Counted from the stretch's first letter, positions 4,546 through 62,395 are shown. The stretch is 64,000 nucleotides of DNA from an uncultured Gammaproteobacteria bacterium (GCA_964521295.1 CAZFRF010000001.1:463865-527864); one strand, 5' to 3'. A program made the numbers and translations. The notes: generated by a model from the letters alone, not told the origin.

Positions 4546-7449
4546 TTAATTTACTTGATCTATCATTCCCATTACATCTTTTCTATTTCTATATAATTCA
4601 TTAGTGCCTAAAATATTACTTACATCTGTGGTTACTTTTGTATAAATTCCATAAATCTTACTTTGTTTTATTTGATTTTGAGCAAGCTTATTATTTAAAG
4701 CATTTTCTTGGAAATATATTCCAACTCCATTATTAAATAAAATATTTTTACTAATTTCGTTTAAATCAGATTTTATATAAACACCAACTTTATTTCCTTC
4801 AAATGAGTTATTGGCAATTAAATTACTATTTGCTTTATCATAAAAATATATACCATATAATTGACTACCGTTAATATCATTATCTTTAATAAGATTCTTA
4901 TTCGAGCTAACATTTGCCCTAACACCATGTCTATTATTTTGAATTGTATTATTGGAAACTATATTATTACTTGACCTCCAAAGAGCGACTCCGCTAACAT
5001 TACCCCTTATAACATTATTTTCTATGACATTATAATCAGATGTCTCATGGAGCATTATTCCATGTAATTTATTGTTATAAGAAATATTATCTCTAATGGT
5101 GTTGTACATACATCTTTTTGAAAAAATAATTCCATGCGTTCCATTATCATGAGCTATATTTTTTTCTACTATAAAACCGTTAGAATCATCATGTGGATCT
5201 AGTCCATATCTTGTGTTCTCGTAAAACTCATTGCCTCTCCAGATCATTCCAGTTGCTCCGTAGGTAAATGCACCGAAATAATTATGGTGGAATTTACTAT
5301 TAACAACTTCTCCAGTTAAAAGATGATTCTTAAGTTTTAAACTCGATAATTTCCACGATATTCCATATGGGGAAACCGCAATATCAGATGCTGTTGGATA
5401 TCCAAGATAAGAAATTTCTGAATCAAATAAATCCATTCTTGCATTATCCTTTACCATAATAAAACTTCTGCCATCTTTTAGTTCTTTATCGTAATCGTTT
5501 TTCGAACTATCCCATGAAGTAATTTTTACACCATTAATAATTATGTCGCCATTTCTACTTCTAAGCATTGCAAAGCCGTCTTTATTACTTTCAAGCTTTA
5601 ACCATTTAACTTCACTTTTATCTAACTTAAGAGTTACACCATCTGCTAGGAAAATTGTTGCTTTAGAAAGATATGTATAGGGCTCAAGTTCTAAAATATA
5701 GTCTTTTCCTGCACGTGAAATAATATCTTTTAGGGTAACAACCTTTCCTCTTCCTGTTACTAAAAGTGTATTTGTTTTACTATCATATGTAACAGCAATT
5801 CCTCCATCATCCCTAAACGGCCTAACTAAACTAAATTCGGAAATTAACTCAAGATCTTTTCCGGGAATAGAAATAATCTGCCCTTTCGTAATTTGTCTAT
5901 TTGGTGCCTTTGCCATATTTGCATAATAGAGTTGCTCACTGTTAACACCAAACTTGTTCGCTATTTGATCCAAAGATTCATCATTTAATACTTCATATCT
6001 TTTTGACAAAAGATCTTTCTGTACTGAACCCGTTCCCAATACGCTTACTGAAGCAATTTTTTTTGTATCATTAGGCAAAGCTTGGGACAATATTTGCATT
6101 TTTTGTTGATTTGGTAGTAAATATGTATATTGTTTATATAAATAAACACCATATGCTAAAAACAAAACTATAGTAAAAGTTGCTAGATATGGAGGAAGTG
6201 AATTAATAAATTTCATATGTGGAAGCCTCGATTTATCCCATCTTGTAATCCAGCCCTGTGTATTTAAAGTGAAAAATGCATATATCTTTACCAAACCAGT
6301 AAAGAAGGAATATAAAACATAACCAGGTAGGATATAAATATTTTTTGGATTCTTTGATAAATAAGGATGAATCTTAATCGCCCTACTTACAAACCACCAG
6401 CAAAAGATTATTGCTGCAGCAACATAAGATCCAAGATAAATCGAAACAAAGAAATATATTGGACTTAAAATGACTACAAATGATTGCAAGAATTTATCAA
6501 TTTGAAAAAACAGTAATGCAGGATGTTTCAATGGCCAACCATTTAATATGGCTCCAAGATCAGCTCTTAACCCATTTCTTGTCCATCTGAGTCTTTGCTT
6601 AAGATATGCTCTTAAACTCTCCATCCCAGGAGTATAAACATGAGAATTACTTTGAAAAGCAACCTTATAACCTGCTGCTAAAACTAAATATGTTAACCTC
6701 TTATCATCACCTGAGATAACTGGTCTACCTAAAAACTTTTCGTTTACTAAATCGTCAAGCATTGGTGTTATTATTTCTCTTTTATAAAATGCGGTTCTTC
6801 CCGAAAGACAGACTAATGCATCTCCACATGCTGCTAAGAATGGGTACTCATGCTTGTACCTTAAATCAAGTTGGATATCAAATATTTTCTGTGCAAATGT
6901 TTTAGGATTTAATACGTTTTGATATGTTGCTACTCCTCCCATTTTTTTATCGTTAAAGGGCGGAAGTCCATTTTCTAAAGTATCTTTTACCCAAATAGTA
7001 TCACTATCTACTAAAGCAACAATCTCACTCTTTGCAACTTTTATTCCATCTACTAAAGCCTGCCTTTTCCCTGGAACTTTAGTAATAATTAATTTTGCAC
7101 CAGGAAAAGTTTTCTTAAACTTCTCGAAAATCTTAATACAAATTTTATCTGTATAATCAATTACTGCAATTATTTCATCTGGCTTATTTCTTTTCCAAGA
7201 TTCTAGAGCTTGTGTAAATACTTTTGGATTTTCATTATATACTGGAGTAATTATAGAAACTTTTGCTTTATAAGATTTTGTTTTGGGATGATAATGAAGC
7301 CCAACTATTTCTTTCATCATCCAAATAGACCATCGCCAAATACCGATTATTCCAAGCGGTACTAAGAATGAATATCTGTCTAAATATTGTTGCGAATAAA
7401 ATGATAAATCTCCAATGAATAATTGAAAGTTCAAAATAAACGATTCCAT
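4546..7449 (-). CDS. Processive GT2 polysaccharide synthase (NodC/chitin/hyaluronan-synthase-like) fused to a LysM motif and a C-terminal PbH1 beta-helix domain
   Basis: GT2 motifs DSDT, SGDDKRLT (GEDRxLT-like), QRLRWTRN (QxxRW), followed by multiple TM helices. LysM-like segment: YEVLNDESLDQIANKFGVNSEQLYYANM...ITKGQIISIPG. C-terminal repeats NNVIRGN / NNTIQNN / IKDNDINGS are typical of parallel beta-helix. Confidence 0.7.
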   Translation of the reverse strand: MESFILNFQLFIGDLSFYSQQYLDRYSFLVPLGIIGIWRWSIWMMKEIVGLHYHPKTKSYKAKVSIITPVYNENPKVFTQALESWKRNKPDEIIAVIDYTDKICIKIFEKFKKTFPGAKLIITKVPGKRQALVDGIKVAKSEIVALVDSDTIWVKDTLENGLPPFNDKKMGGVATYQNVLNPKTFAQKIFDIQLDLRYKHEYPFLAACGDALVCLSGRTAFYKREIITPMLDDLVNEKFLGRPVISGDDKRLTYLVLAAGYKVAFQSNSHVYTPGMESLRAYLKQRLRWTRNGLRADLGAILNGWPLKHPALLFFQIDKFLQSFVVILSPIYFFVSIYLGSYVAAAIIFCWWFVSRAIKIHPYLSKNPKNIYILPGYVLYSFFTGLVKIYAFFTLNTQGWITRWDKSRLPHMKFINSLPPYLATFTIVLFLAYGVYLYKQYTYLLPNQQKMQILSQALPNDTKKIASVSVLGTGSVQKDLLSKRYEVLNDESLDQIANKFGVNSEQLYYANMAKAPNRQITKGQIISIPGKDLELISEFSLVRPFRDDGGIAVTYDSKTNTLLVTGRGKVVTLKDIISRAGKDYILELEPYTYLSKATIFLADGVTLKLDKSEVKWLKLESNKDGFAMLRSRNGDIIINGVKITSWDSSKNDYDKELKDGRSFIMVKDNARMDLFDSEISYLGYPTASDIAVSPYGISWKLSSLKLKNHLLTGEVVNSKFHHNYFGAFTYGATGMIWRGNEFYENTRYGLDPHDDSNGFIVEKNIAHDNGTHGIIFSKRCMYNTIRDNISYNNKLHGIMLHETSDYNVIENNVIRGNVSGVALWRSSNNIVSNNTIQNNRHGVRANVSSNKNLIKDNDINGSQLYGIYFYDKANSNLIANNSFEGNKVGVYIKSDLNEISKNILFNNGVGIYFQENALNNKLAQNQIKQSKIYGIYTKVTTDVSNILGTNELYRNRKDVMGMIDQVN

Positions 7450-8327: not shown

Positions 8328-8819
8328 ATTTTTAATATGGCAAATTGTAACATAAAAATTTAAAAAAGTCTTGAGTTAATTTTACTAATATTTCCATTTT
8401 CCCAACGATCGAGAAATTTTGAATATATTTCTAAACAAAATAAATATAAATATTACTATTTAAAAAAATTGTCTTACTAATCTCTTACTCATAAATATGT
8501 GTTTTAAAATAAATAAATTTTATATTTAATACATGAAATATTTAGTTGCTTGGATACTAGGAGTCCCAGTTGGGGTGTTGGTTATTATTTGGATTATCAC
8601 GCAAATAATATAATTTATGAAAATTACATTATTTAACAAAAAATCTTCTCAGAAAATATATTTAGATGAAAATCAAAAAAAATTAATTCTTTTTACAAGA
8701 TTTCAAATTAAAAAATTACAAGAAAAAGGCCTTAAAATTCCCATTACCTTCTTATAATCTTTACACAATTATTACATTTTCTTCATATTGTTTTTCAAAA
8801 TAAGAGTTATAAATAAATT

Positions 8820-9204: not shown

Positions 9205-9882
9205 ATGAATAAAACAATATTAGTAATCGAAGATCAAAAAGATTTACAGAATTATCTAAAAGAGTTCTTACTTGATAATGATTTTCTTGTCTTAACTGCA
9301 AACGATGGCATCACAGGATTAAATCTTCTAAAAAGAACGCTTCCAGACTTAGTTCTTCTAGATCTGGGACTTCCTAATATGGATGGGGAAAGCGTTTGCC
9401 GTGAAATCAAAAAGAATTGGCCGGGACTTAAGATTATTATTCTCACAGCTAAAAATGATACCCTCGACATAGTTCATGGTCTTAATCTAGGTGCTGATGA
9501 TTATATTACTAAACCTTTTCAGCTAGAAGAATTAATTGCAAGAATAAAAGCAAGACTTAGGCATGATACTAAAAACACTCCCACTAAAAGCCTAGAGGAT
9601 CTTGAGCTAAATGAAGAAACCCACGAGGTAAAAAGAAATGGAATAAACATAGACCTTACAGCAACTGAATTTAAACTTCTCGATTATTTAATGTCAAATC
9701 CAGGCAAAGTTTTAACCAGAGAAATGATTTTAAGTAAAATTTGGTCCATGGCACCAGATATTGAATCTAGATCGGTTGATGTATATATTGGCTATTTAAG
9801 AAGAAAAATAGACAGTAATTCTCCAAAAAAACTAATTCAATCAGTAAGAGGATTTGGCTACACAATTAAATCATCTAACTAA
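9205..9882 (+). CDS. Two-component response regulator, OmpR/PhoB family
   Basis: Receiver domain (DQKDL...LLDLGLPNMDG...K). C-terminal winged-helix trans_reg_C (LTATEFKLLDYLMSNPGKVLTREMI...VDVYIGYLRRKI). Confidence 0.85.
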   Translation: MNKTILVIEDQKDLQNYLKEFLLDNDFLVLTANDGITGLNLLKRTLPDLVLLDLGLPNMDGESVCREIKKNWPGLKIIILTAKNDTLDIVHGLNLGADDYITKPFQLEELIARIKARLRHDTKNTPTKSLEDLELNEETHEVKRNGINIDLTATEFKLLDYLMSNPGKVLTREMILSKIWSMAPDIESRSVDVYIGYLRRKIDSNSPKKLIQSVRGFGYTIKSSN

Positions 9883-54888: not shown

Positions 54889-56622
54889 TTATTTTTTGAA
54901 TTTGAAAATATAATCATTATCCATTTGCTTCAAAAATAACAAATTTTTGTCTTCTTTTACCTTTGATAAAATTTCATCGCCTGTAATTGTCAGAACCTTT
55001 TGCTTATGTAAGGCATCATACTCTAATTTATTAATGATGACATAGTCTACGTTCATTATTTTTATTTTATTAATTGATTCTTTATTGGGAAAATTATAAA
55101 AAAGATACAAGGCATCTTCTTGCCATTTAGCTGGAGAAAAGCCGCTATAACCATTTACAGTTTTCCTAAACGCTATTGTTGAATAGTATTCTCTCTCAAG
55201 CTCTATAGCTGAATTGGGTACATTCCAATTATAAATCGGCATTTGAATATATACAGATTCTTTCGGAATAGAATTTAACCAAGCATATATTTTAGGGAAA
55301 TCTTTTGCTTCCTTGAGTGGGTAAACTTTCATTGGAAAATTATATTCCAAAACAATGCCTAAAATTAAAAATAAAAATACTATTTTTTTGGGTTTTATAA
55401 ACTTACTAAGTAAGATACCTATCGCTACAGCAAGACAAAATATAAACATTACTTCCCAGCGCTCACTATTCCTAAAACCCTTAAACCCGGGAATAAGATA
55501 ATAAAAAAACGCATAGGGTAAAACTATAGGAAAGGGGGAATGAATTGTTTCTCTGTTATAGTGCAAAAGAGGGCCAAAGCTCAAAATTAAACTAAAAATT
55601 CCAGTAACAATAAAACTGTTGTAAATATAATCCCTTAGATTAAAGCGCTTAACATATTTATAAATTAATAAGATAACTAACAAAGAAAATACTAAACCAA
55701 TATATCCATATTTCACCTCATCATATCTTGGATATTTTTTCAGATTTGAAATACTAAGTAGTATGTTTTGCAATCTAGTTTGCTGGTTAGGATAAATTAA
55801 ATCCTCTGGTTGAAGAGCAAAATGAATTGTATCCCTAATATTTCTTGCAGCAGAATATTCACTGTAAACTTCAAAATATGGTTTTACCAACGGAATTAAG
55901 GAAATTAAACAAATGATGATTAAAAATAAATTAGTTTTATTAAAAAGTTTTTGAAATTTATTTTTATTAAATAAAAATATAAAAATTAACAAAATACTAT
56001 AAAACAAAAATAAAAAATATCCTGGTAAAAAACTGTTATACATTTGAAGATCGAAAAACAATAATGCAAAAAATAAGTATCGAGTTTTAAGAGTTTTAAC
56101 AAATATTAAAAACATTAAAATTGACAAAGGAATCCATTGAATCGATAAAATCTGAATATGAACTTCTTTATCTAAAAAGGCTGGAGAGAAGATTAATATT
56201 AATCCTGAAATAAGAGAGGGTAAGAAATTTTTTGTTAAGTAAAAAGATAATAAAAATGTAAAAAATCCCACCATGAAAATTGAAGATATTAAAGTGAAAT
56301 TAACTAAAGCTATTGGTGAATTGAATATTTTTATTAATGGGAAAGAGATTAACGCGGAAGTGATAAACACATCTGAATATGCGATTGGATTTAAATAAGG
56401 ATAATAAAATGTACCAACAAACAAATTTTGTGGACTTGTAAACAAAGAATTAATCACCCAACTAAATACATAACCATGCAAAAGTTGATCTCCATAACTA
56501 GTAACCCCGTTTGATAAATTTAAAATTAAAGGATAGGTAATATAAATTGCGGAAAATACAAAGATGAGAAATGCCAAGGAATAAAGATTAAAAAATCTTT
56601 TAATTAGATTTATTAAATTCAT
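54889..56622 (-). CDS. Large polytopic membrane protein, possible GT-C-type glycosyltransferase
   Basis: 577 aa, at least 12 TM helices. No soluble catalytic domain is recognisable. Confidence 0.4.
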   Translation of the reverse strand: MNLINLIKRFFNLYSLAFLIFVFSAIYITYPLILNLSNGVTSYGDQLLHGYVFSWVINSLFTSPQNLFVGTFYYPYLNPIAYSDVFITSALISFPLIKIFNSPIALVNFTLISSIFMVGFFTFLLSFYLTKNFLPSLISGLILIFSPAFLDKEVHIQILSIQWIPLSILMFLIFVKTLKTRYLFFALLFFDLQMYNSFLPGYFLFLFYSILLIFIFLFNKNKFQKLFNKTNLFLIIICLISLIPLVKPYFEVYSEYSAARNIRDTIHFALQPEDLIYPNQQTRLQNILLSISNLKKYPRYDEVKYGYIGLVFSLLVILLIYKYVKRFNLRDYIYNSFIVTGIFSLILSFGPLLHYNRETIHSPFPIVLPYAFFYYLIPGFKGFRNSERWEVMFIFCLAVAIGILLSKFIKPKKIVFLFLILGIVLEYNFPMKVYPLKEAKDFPKIYAWLNSIPKESVYIQMPIYNWNVPNSAIELEREYYSTIAFRKTVNGYSGFSPAKWQEDALYLFYNFPNKESINKIKIMNVDYVIINKLEYDALHKQKVLTITGDEILSKVKEDKNLLFLKQMDNDYIFKFKK

Positions 56623-57670
56623 TAATTATTTTTACTAAATTCTTAAAGTCCTGTAAACTATGCGCTGGGAAATTACCTATTCTAATTTGCTTATCTTTAT
56701 TTACCCCATAACCACTTCCAATAATAATTCCTTTTGATTTACAAAAATCTAAAAGTTTTTTAGAACCTTTCTTAACATTAATTACTAATGTAGTTGTAGA
56801 TCTTAAATTTTTATCATTAACTGGGATTGAATAATTATTATTTTTTTCAAAATAATTATAAATAAGATTTGCTTTTTCTTCTGTTTCTTCTCTTATTTTT
56901 CTTATTCCTTTTTTAAGCATGTCATTAAGCACTTTATTTAATAAATAAATACCTAAAACATTTGGGGTTTCAGGTGTTTCTCTTTTTAAAGAGTAACTTA
57001 ATAGAGTTGGAAAATTATGATAAGTTCCAATGCTTTTTTTATTTTTTAATAAAGTTTGGGATTTTTTAATAGCTTTTGGACTTAAAATTAATAAACCTAG
57101 TCCCGCTGGTAAACCAAAACCTTTTTGGACAGAAACAAATACCCCATCTAAATATTTATAATTTAAATCCTCATATGGAAGCGAAGACACACAATCTACA
57201 GCAATGAGTAAATTTTTATATTTTCTTTTTAATTTATAAATTTCTTCCATTGATATACCTTCTCCCGTACTCGTGTCATTTTGCGTTACACACAAAAGCT
57301 CTGAGGATTGTAAGTTTTCTTTTTTAATTGATTCCCAATACATCTTCTTAGGTTTTTTTCCCAATTCTTTTGCTATTTCATAAAATCTCTCTCCAAATGA
57401 TCCAGTAATCAAATGCGTACTTTTTTGAATAACTGTATTTTTAATCATTAACTCCATGGCTTCTGTTCCTGAGGTGATAAAAAATATTTGATAATCTTGA
57501 GGAATATTTAAAAGAGTTTTTAAAAGACTGACGGTTTCCGTAAAAAGAACATGAAATTTCTCCCCCCTATGATTTAAAGAAGGGACTTGCTCTTTAATTG
57601 CCATTCTTATGTATTCCTCAACTTTGGGATACAACTTAGATGGACCAACTGTGAAATAAAGGTTTTTCAT
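56600..57670 (-). CDS. serC: Class V aminotransferase (phosphoserine aminotransferase-like)
   Basis: PLP-fold. N-terminal FTVGPS motif typical of SerC/AGXT. Adjacent to the serB-serA fusion. Confidence 0.6.
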   Translation of the reverse strand: MKNLYFTVGPSKLYPKVEEYIRMAIKEQVPSLNHRGEKFHVLFTETVSLLKTLLNIPQDYQIFFITSGTEAMELMIKNTVIQKSTHLITGSFGERFYEIAKELGKKPKKMYWESIKKENLQSSELLCVTQNDTSTGEGISMEEIYKLKRKYKNLLIAVDCVSSLPYEDLNYKYLDGVFVSVQKGFGLPAGLGLLILSPKAIKKSQTLLKNKKSIGTYHNFPTLLSYSLKRETPETPNVLGIYLLNKVLNDMLKKGIRKIREETEEKANLIYNYFEKNNNYSIPVNDKNLRSTTTLVINVKKGSKKLLDFCKSKGIIIGSGYGVNKDKQIRIGNFPAHSLQDFKNLVKIINEFNKSN

Positions 57671-57673
57671 AAT

Positions 57674-59281
57674 TTACTGCTGAATTATACCACTAACTGA
57701 ACAATAACTTAATATTTTATCTCCAACATAATCGGCGATCCTTAACTGAGCCTCCTCTGTGCTTCCACCGATATGTGGTGTCAGAATAACATTATTTAAA
57801 TTTTGTAAATTTGAATGAAATAATTCTCCATTATTTGGTTCATTATTAAATACGTCAATCGCAGCTCCTTTAATTTTACCGTTCTCAATATATTTTACTA
57901 ATTCTTTTAAATCAACAACGAAGCCTCTACTTAAATTAAGAAATATCGAGTTGTTTTTCATTAATCTAAATTCTTTACCAGAAATTAGATTAATATTTTC
58001 TTTTCTTCCATCAACATGGACAGTAATAATATCTGAAATTTTCAATAATTCATCTAAGGATCTACATTTAATCGCATTGCCAAATGACAATTTATCATTA
58101 ATATCAAAATAATATACATGCATACCTAAAGCTTCTGCAAGTATTCCGACACTTGAACCGATATTTCCATAACCGACTATTCCCAAATTCTTACCAATAA
58201 TTTCATTCGAATTAGTTGCTGATTTATCCCAGACTCCTTGATGCAGTTTATTATTTTTTTCAAATATTTTTCTACTAAGAATAATTATCTCTGCAATAAC
58301 CAATTCAACTACGCTTCGCGAATTACTAAAGGGAGCATTTATTATCTGGATTTTTCTTTTTCTACATTCTTCAATATCAATTTGATCAGTTCCTATACAA
58401 AAAGCCGCGATAATTTTTAAATCATGAACATTTTTTAATATTTTTTTAGTAATCCGTGTTTTTGATCTAATACCTAAAATGTTAACATCTTTAATTTTTT
58501 TAATTAAGTCTTCTTCAGATAATGCGTCTTTGATAAATTCAACATTAAAAATATCTTTGTCAAATTTATTTAATACACTTTTGTGAACATTTTCTAAAAG
58601 CATTACATTTAATTTTTTTAATTTATAATTAAAAAGAAATTCGGTTAAAGAATTAGCAATGTAATCAGCTTTATTAGCTAAAACTTCTCTACTAATATTT
58701 TCAGTAAACAAAATGAATTTTGCATTTTTATTATTAATTTTTATCTCATAATCTGTATAACCATCTCCTAAGATATAAAGATTGCCTTTTAACTTTAAGG
58801 CCTCAATTGTTTTTGCCTTTCCTAAAGGCTTAACTAATAAATTATTCCTATCAAAATCTATAACTCTATTTTTTTTATAAATAAATTTGTTTGCAAATAC
58901 ATTTTGTTCTAAAATTCCAAACTCCTTAATGACTGGAATTATATATTCTCTAAATCCTCCGGAAATAATATAAATATTTTCCTTATTTTCTAAAATAAAT
59001 TTCTTATTCTCTAAAAAAGAACTAGAGGTATTTCGTTTTAAAATTTTGATTAACTTATCTATTTGTTTTTTGTTAATATCTAAAAGTCTTAATCTTTCCT
59101 CTAAAGATTTCGTGAATCCAATTTTTCCTTCCATTCCTTGCTTAGTAATATCTTTAATTTTATTTATTATTTGTGATCTGTTTTTACTATTTTTCAAAAC
59201 AATTTCTGCCAATAAATCCATGGCTTCACATTTAATGAATGTACTATCAAAATCAATAATAAAATAGTTAGTTTTTTCCAT
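57674..59281 (-). CDS. Fusion of HAD phosphoserine-phosphatase-like domain and D-3-phosphoglycerate dehydrogenase (2-hydroxyacid dehydrogenase) domain
   Basis: N-terminal IIDFDSTFIKCEAMD (DxDxT) and GDGYTD. C-terminal NAD-binding GIVGYGNIGSSVG and catalytic HIGGST. Confidence 0.7.
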   Translation of the reverse strand: MEKTNYFIIDFDSTFIKCEAMDLLAEIVLKNSKNRSQIINKIKDITKQGMEGKIGFTKSLEERLRLLDINKKQIDKLIKILKRNTSSSFLENKKFILENKENIYIISGGFREYIIPVIKEFGILEQNVFANKFIYKKNRVIDFDRNNLLVKPLGKAKTIEALKLKGNLYILGDGYTDYEIKINNKNAKFILFTENISREVLANKADYIANSLTEFLFNYKLKKLNVMLLENVHKSVLNKFDKDIFNVEFIKDALSEEDLIKKIKDVNILGIRSKTRITKKILKNVHDLKIIAAFCIGTDQIDIEECRKRKIQIINAPFSNSRSVVELVIAEIIILSRKIFEKNNKLHQGVWDKSATNSNEIIGKNLGIVGYGNIGSSVGILAEALGMHVYYFDINDKLSFGNAIKCRSLDELLKISDIITVHVDGRKENINLISGKEFRLMKNNSIFLNLSRGFVVDLKELVKYIENGKIKGAAIDVFNNEPNNGELFHSNLQNLNNVILTPHIGGSTEEAQLRIADYVGDKILSYCSVSGIIQQ

Positions 59282-59434
59282 AAAAAAACCTCCCTTTTCG
59301 GGAGGACTCTTTCTTTTCGTTTACAACAAAATTACCTCCCGCAGTTATTACTACTGCAGGATGGTGAAAAATTGTTGTTTACATCTACTCGACTATTCAT
59401 AATTTAATTATACATTTATTAAGCTTTGTGTCAA
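59282..59434 (-). promoter_or_regulatory. Consensus promoter plus leader containing a Shine-Dalgarno-sequestering terminator hairpin and an alternative anti-sequester partner
   Basis: On the minus strand: TTGACA (59434-59429), 16-nt spacer, TATAAT (59412-59407). Leader GGGAGG (59340-59335) ... CCUCCC (59305-59300)-GAAAA-GGGAGG (59294-59289)-U7-AUG (59281). Confidence 0.45.
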
Positions 59435-62117: not shown

Positions 62118-62143
62118 TAGTTAATCTTAACACAAAACAGCCT

Positions 62144-62175
62144 CAAAAAAAATCCCTCACTTATACAAGTGAGGG
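62144..62175 (-). terminator. Intrinsic terminator/attenuator hairpin in the secA leader
   Basis: On the minus strand: CCCTCAC-UUGUAUAA-GUGAGGG followed by U8. Located 27 nt upstream of the secA ATG and 220 nt downstream of the serS stop. Confidence 0.5.
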
Positions 62176-62226
62176 AACCAATTGATCAATTGGTAATAAT
62201 TGGTAATGCTCCAAATTGCTTACCAA

Positions 62227-62256
62227 CTATTTCTTCTTCTTCTTTTTCTTTGCCAT
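62227..62256 (-). CDS. Candidate leader peptide MAKKKKKKK (9 codons)
   Basis: GGGAGGTG Shine-Dalgarno, 8-nt spacer, ATG at 62256. Seven consecutive AAG/AAA codons, TAG stop. Lies 50 nt upstream of the terminator hairpin. Confidence 0.35.
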   Translation of the reverse strand: MAKKKKKKK

Positions 62257-62395
62257 GATCAATTCACCTCCCTTGTGAGTTATATAAACTCAATTAATCT
62301 TATAATCTACCTTTTACTATGTACTGTCAAGGGTTGTTGCTTGCCTCAAAATAATAGAATTAGATTGAATTGGAGAGATAAATTATTTCTAAATA

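Follow-up and report, generated by a model that had tools for sequence, protein, structure and literature searches.

The window (the whole 64,000-nucleotide stretch of DNA that was analysed) carries on its minus strand, in this order, serS (63682-62396), secA (62117-59439), a serB-serA fusion and serC. A leader of about 119-122 nt precedes the fusion gene, and the genes putatively under its control are the serB-serA fusion and serC (56600..59281, minus strand). The following features are referred to below:

59441-59439, minus strand: stop codon of secA
59429..59434, minus strand: -35 hexamer TTGACA, beginning 4 nt past the secA stop
59407..59412, minus strand: -10 hexamer TATAAT, with a 16-nt spacer to the -35 hexamer and 6 nt between it and the AUG of the leader ORF
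59332..59400, minus strand: leader ORF (uORF) of 22 codons plus UAA, MNSRVDVNNNFSPSCSSNNCGR*, with synonymous substitutions in relatives
59362..59400, minus strand: conserved N-terminal module of the uORF, codons 1-13, M-N-x-R-V-D-V-x-N-N-F-S-P, kept in 21 distinct leaders
59350..59367, minus strand: Ser-codon cluster, codons 12-17, UCA CCA UCC UGC AGU AGU, overlapping region 1
59319..59382, minus strand: hairpin 1 (regions 1:2) in its extended form, from MFE folds, -24.7 kcal/mol alone
59365-59334, minus strand: core of hairpin 1, ACC-A-UCCUGCAGU / ACUGCGGGA-GGU, with the 9-bp stem UCCUGCAGU/ACUGCGGGA
59335..59341, minus strand: region 2, CGGGAGG, which serves hairpin 1 as its 3' arm and the antiterminator as its 5' strand
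59299..59305, minus strand: region 3, CCUCCCG, partner of region 2 (antiterminator) or of region 4 (terminator)
59289..59294, minus strand: region 4, GGGAGG, 3' arm of the terminator and Shine-Dalgarno sequence of serBA, 7 nt 5' of its AUG
59282..59313, minus strand: intrinsic terminator, consisting of an A-tract, CCUCCC-GAAAA-GGGAGG and U7 (59288-59282), -15.1 kcal/mol
59281-57674, minus strand: serB-serA fusion (SerBA), 535 aa, HAD and 2-hydroxyacid-dehydrogenase domains
57670-56600, minus strand: serC, class-V aminotransferase

The first-pass annotation of this DNA had described a near-perfect promoter just after secA, and the match of TTGACA-16-TATAAT to the consensus is in fact complete (12/12), with a gap of 4 nt to the secA stop codon. 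Perfect consensus promoters occur twice in the 64 kb, compared to 0.09 expected by chance; the second, TTGACA-N17-TATAAT, is located at 2031-2059 on the minus strand. Because the -10 hexamer ends 6 nt before the AUG of the uORF, the predicted +1 falls on the A of this AUG (59400), which is a leaderless geometry, and transcripts presumably start at or a few nucleotides from it.

The leader folds with a free energy of -41.3 kcal/mol (z = -6.4), and none of 200 shuffled sequences folded as well. Its 3' end, which had been read as CCUCCC-GAAAA-GGGAGG-U7-AUG, lies at 59305-59279 and is unique in the window (0 expected), and the ribosome-binding GGGAGG indeed forms the 3' arm of the terminator stem. 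A second, upstream GGGAGG that had been proposed as a competitor for the same CCUCCC was located at 59340-59335, 35 nt 5' of CCUCCC. The additional stem noted as CCGCAGU...ACUGCAGG is real as well and represents the plus-strand reading of the minus-strand hairpin UCCUGCAGU-AGUAAUA-ACUGCGGGA. The terminator at 59289-59305 also scores on the plus strand, as CCTCCCTTTTCGGGAGG followed by a T-rich tail, because an A-tract flanks the 5' side of the hairpin; no convergent plus-strand gene is present.

Relatives of SerBA were collected by protein homology search and contig look-ups, a procedure without leader bias that yielded 10 loci and thus, together with the window, 11. The uORF cassette was found in seven of these, namely in the window and in the loci L081-L084, L086 and L106, whose SerBA proteins are 86% (L081), 76% (L082), 56–58% (L083 and L084, both Levybacteria), 56% (L086) and 53% (L106) identical to that of the window. 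All of these carriers have retained the -35 hexamer TTGACA and the -10 hexamer, the latter 6 nt before the ATG, and have diverged in the sequence of the spacer; the -10/6 nt/ATG spacing is also retained in L099. In the remaining SerBA relatives (L085, L087, L107 and L108) the regions upstream of the gene are short or unrelated and the cassette is absent, indicating that the element is lineage-restricted. When contigs were scanned with the SerBA protein, only distant SerA domains with 27–42% identity from Proteobacteria and Bacteroidota and no syntenic relatives were obtained. A search with the back-translated pattern of the peptide N-terminus returned 18 further metagenomic loci, of which 15 are distinct, including a truncated one; a caveat to the serine model is that most members of the family were obtained with a pattern that required the peptide itself. 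Viral contigs searched with the peptide pattern gave 0 hits, and a relaxed six-frame search of the window and all related loci did not reveal a second copy beyond the known ones. The named source organisms of the cassette loci are Candidatus Levybacteria. Downstream of the cassette, the following genes were found in further loci:

L088, L099: SerB-SerA
L105: SerA
L090: SHMT/glyA
L091: Gly_transporter (PF03458)
L089, L092, L098, L104: Vut_1 (PF02592)
L094, L100, L102: Methyltransf_28-MTHFR fusion
L103: NlpC/P60
L095: protein of no assigned family

The Methyltransf_28 (PF02636) and MTHFR (PF02219) fusion proteins under leader control comprise 640–650 aa (L094 3244-5205, L100, L102), and since they belong to a serine/glycine/one-carbon leader regulon, a folate-linked function is suggested for them. 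Genes for tRNA-Ser were encountered near two of the controlled genes: L090 contains a tRNA-Ser with the unusual anticodon ACU at 4854-4942 (plus strand), 359 nt 3' of glyA on the same strand, and L089 contains tRNA-Ser genes with the anticodons GGA, CGA and UGA (6213-6300, 8370-8458 and 9216-9303, minus strand) 2.4–5.5 kb 5' of the Vut_1 gene. Among the tRNAs in all family loci retrieved, four of seven are tRNA-Ser.

The uORF starts with its own start-site signal in 21 distinct leaders, as expected for a candidate ribosome-mediated attenuator. Its AUG is reached by either of two routes, TATAAT followed by 6–9 nt or a GAGGAG Shine-Dalgarno sequence followed by 7–8 nt, and the distance from promoter to AUG is 14–15 nt in two loci. 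The encoded peptides have a total length of 17–28 aa with a variable tail. The peptide of L081 is the same as that of the window, and those of other SerBA loci read MNSRVDVNNNFSPSCSSDNCGR (L082), MNSRVDVNNNFSPSSSSDLNFGRFMVL (L083), MNSRVDVYNNFSPSLSSYLNFGRFMVL (L084), MNTRVDVNNNFSPSSSKASFGRFFVL (L086) and MNSRVMITNNFSPSNRCKKASGRFFAQ (L106). Within residues 1-13, ten positions are essentially invariant against a background of saturated synonymous sites, and residue 8 of the pattern-found peptides is N, Y or H. Between the window and L083, whose SerBA proteins are 58% identical, codons 1-14 differ by seven synonymous and no non-synonymous substitutions, including a change from CGA to AGA. Variation within the conserved 39 nt of the 21 leaders is confined almost entirely to third positions and to Arg4, which is encoded by CGA, AGA, CGC, CGT or AGG. 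Since the 5' 39 nt vary at third positions and by CGA/AGA exchange, the conservation is of the coding type rather than that of an RNA motif, and the comparison of the leaders demonstrates selection on the uORF at the amino acid level. Because of the same variation, an operator for a DNA-binding repressor was rejected as an explanation of the conserved 5' block. None of the five leader peptides tested matched a family in Pfam or NCBIfam, and the leader-peptide strings were not found in the literature. The first-pass annotation overlooked this ORF, and the translated leader peptide is most likely the sensor of the element.

A comparison of serA/serB leaders among relatives, which had been recommended as a check of the ON/OFF structure, revealed covariation of the antiterminator. 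Every relative contains a long hairpin 1 at the equivalent place, with a different stem sequence, followed by a terminator hairpin. At its base, hairpin 1 often pairs the F-S-P codons UUUUCACC with GGUGnAAAA, and the two arms form more stable duplexes with each other than with the arms of other leaders (-16.7 versus -13.3 kcal/mol, p = 1.5e-4). Region 2 occurs in the variants CGGGAGG, UUUGGGAGG, GCUGGGAG and GGCCGGGAG, to which region 3 and the terminator loop are complementary as CCUCCCG, CCUCCCAAA, CUCCCAGC and CUCCCGGUC. RNAalifold returned the 2:3 antiterminator as a consensus helix of 17 leaders, with 91% of the cells paired and two-sided changes in 17 cells, compared to 7.1 in shuffled alignments, none of which reached the observed value (0/500). 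When the partner was slid by 1–3 columns as a control, 2:3 pairing fell to 38–69%. Duplex energies again favoured the strand of the same leader over those of others (-16.0 versus -13.3 kcal/mol, p = 5e-5). The covariation seen in 17 homologous leaders thereby supports the alternative-structure platform proposed for the window, in which the upstream GGGAGG pairs with CCUCCC, and as in known attenuators the antiterminator is mutually exclusive with both the 1:2 and the 3:4 helix. The CCUCCC/GGGAG core hardly varies, presumably because three pairings must be satisfied simultaneously.

The terminator hairpin with its U-run lies between the uORF and the first structural gene, the position expected in an attenuator, and is present in 18 of 20 distinct complete leaders; the exceptions are L095 and L103. 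In L095 (7611-7760), region 3 CCUCCUAG pairs with the AGGAGG Shine-Dalgarno sequence of the main gene and no U-run follows the hairpin, so that this locus is apparently a purely translational variant. L103 (minus strand, uORF at 1378-1325 of the locus) has kept the N-terminal peptide and has a weak hairpin with a U-run in place of the CCUCCC/GGGAGG terminator. In most members, the main start codon is located far past the U-run and has its own Shine-Dalgarno sequence, which indicates that transcription termination is the common output.

Serine accounts for five of the 22 codons of the window's uORF, and four of them, codons 12 (UCA), 14 (UCC), 16 (AGU) and 17 (AGU), fall within hairpin 1, in its 5' arm and loop. 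In the tail, which comprises codon 14 and all those that follow, 41 of 142 residues in the family are Ser (29%, p = 7e-10), compared to 10% expected from base composition and 5.7–6.2% in the proteins of the window. If the same tail nucleotides are read in the other two frames, Ser reaches 5/126 (4%) and 11/126 (9%). Ser12 is encoded by a UCN codon in 21 of 21 leaders, and UCN codons are those at which ribosomes slow down under serine starvation in B. subtilis and E. coli (PMC3862929). With an invariant Ser12, a frame-specific enrichment in the tail and serA/serB/serC or glyA downstream, the leaders are enriched in codons for the amino acid of the controlled pathway, as is typical of attenuators. 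Part of the enrichment could be structural because some UCC codons are forced by pairing with GGGA. The idea that it is a mere by-product of the CUCCC arm can be accepted in part only, as it is opposed by the frame test and by the AGU/AGC codons in the loop. Counting against the serine attenuator, Ser12 is the single Ser in the peptide of L104, L095 and L103 deviate in their terminators, and a role in serine supply is not obvious for Vut_1, the MTHFR fusion or NlpC/P60. Sensitivity to asparagine might conceivably be conferred in addition by the three invariant Asn codons.

The spacing of these elements is conserved. Counted from the AUG, region 1 starts at nt 28–39 (codons 10-13), the Ser codons of the window occupy nt 34–51 and region 2 lies at nt 56–77 in all members. 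The stop codon is never more than 6 nt ahead of region 2 or 12 nt beyond it, a position from which a ribosome that terminates masks region 2; in the window, the UAA (59334-59332) abuts the 3' end of the upstream GGGAGG. Folds of the window constrained by a ribosome that has Ser12, Ser14 or Ser16 in its A site, before region 4 is transcribed, contain the 2:3 helix (-15.5 kcal/mol), while with a ribosome on Ser17 or the stop codon no antiterminator is obtained and the terminator (-15.1 kcal/mol) forms. A ribosome on the regulatory codons thus masks region 1 and not region 2, and a ribosome on the stop codon masks region 2, which is the geometry of an attenuator. At equilibrium, terminator and antiterminator of the window are about equally stable (-15.1 and -14.7 kcal/mol), and the switch must therefore be kinetic, as in the trp attenuator. 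Across the family, the comparison demonstrates that the three helices exist and covary and that the Ser codons, region 2 and the stop codon keep their places.

The transcription start, translation of the uORF, seryl-tRNA as the signal and the efficiency of termination are inferred. It is very likely that, in one way or another, the terminator responds to translation of the uORF. The more specific assignment, a ribosome-mediated leader-peptide transcription attenuator of the trp/his type that responds to serine, is in our judgement probably correct. According to this model, transcription would begin at or a few nucleotides from the AUG of the 22-codon leader ORF. When seryl-tRNA is scarce, the ribosome would wait at Ser codons 12-17 (12-16 according to the folds) and mask region 1, and the freed region 2 (CGGGAGG) would pair with region 3 (CCUCCCG). 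This pairing would block the terminator, let RNA polymerase enter serBA-serC and leave the Shine-Dalgarno sequence in region 4 single-stranded. With plentiful serine, the ribosome would reach the UAA just past region 2 and cover region 2, and if the uORF is not translated, hairpin 1 would form. With region 2 either covered or sequestered in hairpin 1, the 3:4 terminator is predicted to form, whereby transcription would stop and the Shine-Dalgarno sequence would be buried.

All defining features of classical attenuators that can be tested in a sequence are present. The leaders trpL, hisL, pheL, leuL, thrL and ilvL of Enterobacteria and the trp, leu and ilv leaders of Actinobacteria likewise contain a short ORF rich in codons for the end product (PMC1183508, PMC1262725, PMC2965389), and they also share the helices 1:2, 2:3 and 3:4 that exclude one another, an intrinsic terminator and a stop codon that places the ribosome over region 2. 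The present family differs from them in the amino acid, serine, in its occurrence in a lineage of the candidate phyla radiation and in its usually leaderless mRNA. Further differences are the block of 13 N-terminal residues conserved across paralogous leaders and the frozen helix core CCUCCC/GGGAGG, which matches the anti-Shine-Dalgarno/Shine-Dalgarno pair; moreover, the Shine-Dalgarno sequence of serBA in the window is contained in the terminator. Leaderless small ORFs enriched in codons for one amino acid and located in front of several operons are also known from the mycobacterial 'Cys ribulon' (Canestrari et al., bioRxiv 10.1101/834739), which has regulon-level control through ribosome pausing in common with the proposed mechanism (10.1101/834739). 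However, the output of the Cys ribulon is translational, since a downstream ribosome-binding site, otherwise sequestered by RNA structure, becomes accessible when ribosomes stall (10.1101/834739), whereas the conserved output here is a hairpin and U-run terminator, with sequestration of the Shine-Dalgarno sequence in some members only. In addition, the Cys ribulon peptides have only the Cys tract in common and lack a conserved N-terminus (10.1101/834739). For the same pathway gene, serA of Paenibacillus polymyxa, a T-box that senses tRNA-Ser charging was described (PMC8002221), but T-box elements are not found here. The UCN codons of sinR form a serine sensor that reads serine via decoding speed and has no dedicated RNA switch (PMC3862929). 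A serine leader-peptide attenuator was not found in the literature searched, of which the coverage is incomplete so that absence is not proof, and the same search returned no cis-regulatory element for Levybacteria or Microgenomates.

In its degree of conservation, the 13-residue N-terminus far exceeds the needs of a codon-counting attenuator, and the serine-starvation model leaves it unaccounted for. Because a codon-counting attenuator needs no conserved peptide, a pause caused by the nascent chain is the main rival explanation, although we judge it to be unlikely. In this case, M-N-x-R-V-D-V-x-N-N-F-S-P would itself be the sensor and arrest or slow the ribosome from within the exit tunnel at codons 12-14, with a small molecule (serine, glycine or a folate/one-carbon metabolite) or a factor as trigger and the Ser codons in a secondary role. 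The conservation of 13 residues across paralogous leaders despite saturated synonymous sites speaks for such a function, and so does the fact that the conserved block stops exactly where region 1 starts. A peptide of just 17–28 aa, of which the conserved part stays in the tunnel until release, leaves the N-terminal block to act only in the exit tunnel or after release. The regulon moreover mixes serine, glycine and one-carbon functions and is not purely one of serine biosynthesis. On the other hand, known ligand-dependent arrest peptides turn genes on at high ligand concentration, which would be the wrong direction for serA/serB/serC if the ligand were serine, the frame-specific Ser enrichment fits codon sensing instead, and the leader peptides have no similarity to known families of arrest peptides. 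TnaC (PMC8429421) and SpeFL are likewise short conserved peptides that act inside the ribosome and govern transcription termination, but what halts them at their stop codon is a free ligand, tryptophan and ornithine respectively, and they act through Rho (TnaC, PMC8429421). The stall predicted here would occur inside the ORF and affect an intrinsic terminator via an RNA antiterminator, and there is no sequence similarity to either peptide. Both explanations use the same RNA platform and could coexist. We entertain, tentatively and as the less probable case, that the N-terminal module is a new tunnel-acting arrest or pausing peptide that makes ribosomes wait at codons 12-14 jointly with seryl-tRNA or a serine/one-carbon metabolite and that spread in Levybacteria as a compact, portable cassette placed before an entire serine/glycine/one-carbon regulon.

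Much less probable is that an unregulated terminator of secA occludes the serBA ribosome-binding site incidentally, or that an RNA-binding protein stabilises hairpin 1, with an irrelevant uORF in both cases. The hairpins are located directly 3' of secA and both are terminator-like, and the first-pass annotation had considered a secA terminator that doubles as translational gate. However, a perfectly conserved promoter belongs to the cassette, which is invariably found downstream of it. The gene 5' of the cassette in L086 is guaA and not secA, which indicates that the element goes with serBA and does not serve as the terminator of secA; other genes precede it elsewhere, and the genes downstream in other loci are unrelated, so that the gate was rejected as the main role. 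Neither variant provides a role for the selection on the peptide and the Ser codons, nor for the fact that region 2 and the terminator loop covary.

The first-pass annotation had further described the leader as a small riboswitch or attenuator, and of these the attenuator platform is borne out by the covarying antiterminator while the ligand-binding aptamer finds no correspondence in Rfam and conflicts with the coding-type conservation. That hairpin 1 is the aptamer of a metabolite riboswitch and the terminator its expression platform is hardly credible, even though a stable hairpin at a conserved position precedes a terminator/antiterminator pair, since the loop and bulge nucleotides of hairpin 1 are not conserved, its sequence and length vary freely and the sole strongly conserved stretch has codon periodicity and an AUG placed at a promoter or Shine-Dalgarno sequence. 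Searches of Rfam at the gathering score returned only tRNAs for the whole window and 12 related loci. At E <= 10, the segment 59200-59520 gave only weak, sub-threshold matches to Phe_leader and His_leader, which are due to the terminator, and no match to the T-box (RF00230); the leader has a length of only 119 nt.

The serine attenuator remains the preferred reading, and as far as can be judged from the DNA, what would be new is a family of mostly leaderless, serine-specific leader-peptide attenuators whose peptide is unusually conserved, in a lineage of the candidate phyla radiation. The genomes of bacteria in this group are tiny and encode few transcription factors, few riboswitches have been recognised in them, and to our knowledge almost nothing is known about their gene regulation. 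If the model is correct, these bacteria use ribosome-mediated attenuation, and control by leader peptides extends to serine. One cassette would then coordinate serA/serB/serC, glyA, a protein of the glycine-transporter family, Vut_1 and an enzyme with an MTHFR domain, which would provide a physiological context for poorly characterised transporters and fusion proteins. The conserved peptide is a testable candidate for a new effect of a nascent chain on the ribosome. For annotation, the locus is a warning that a riboswitch-like leader may hide a 22-codon gene. The SerB-SerA proteins of the window, L081, L082, L099 and L106 lack a C-terminal ACT regulatory domain, and an ACT domain is present in the 627-aa SerB-SerA of Levybacteria (L083 5001-6884, L084, L086). 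Because the SerB-SerA of the window type has no ACT domain, the attenuator may perhaps be the sole serine feedback on the pathway in the ACT-less lineage.

A second conserved leader was observed in the spacer between serS and secA (62118-62330, minus strand). It has a promoter-like site TTGACA-17-GATTAT and a strong Shine-Dalgarno sequence, AAGGGAGGTGA, in front of a 9-codon mini-ORF (62256-62227) that encodes MAKKKKKKK* in the window and L081, MAKKRKKKK* in L083 and MAKRRKKKR* in L084. This spacer has no match in Rfam. The mini-ORF is followed on its 3' side by a nearly invariant block of about 50 nt, GGTAAGCAATTTGGAGCATTACCAATTATTACCAATTGATCAATTGG, and just 5' of secA by a terminator with a 10-bp hairpin and T8 (62176-62145), and the leader may exert control over secA by a polybasic peptide or a structured RNA.
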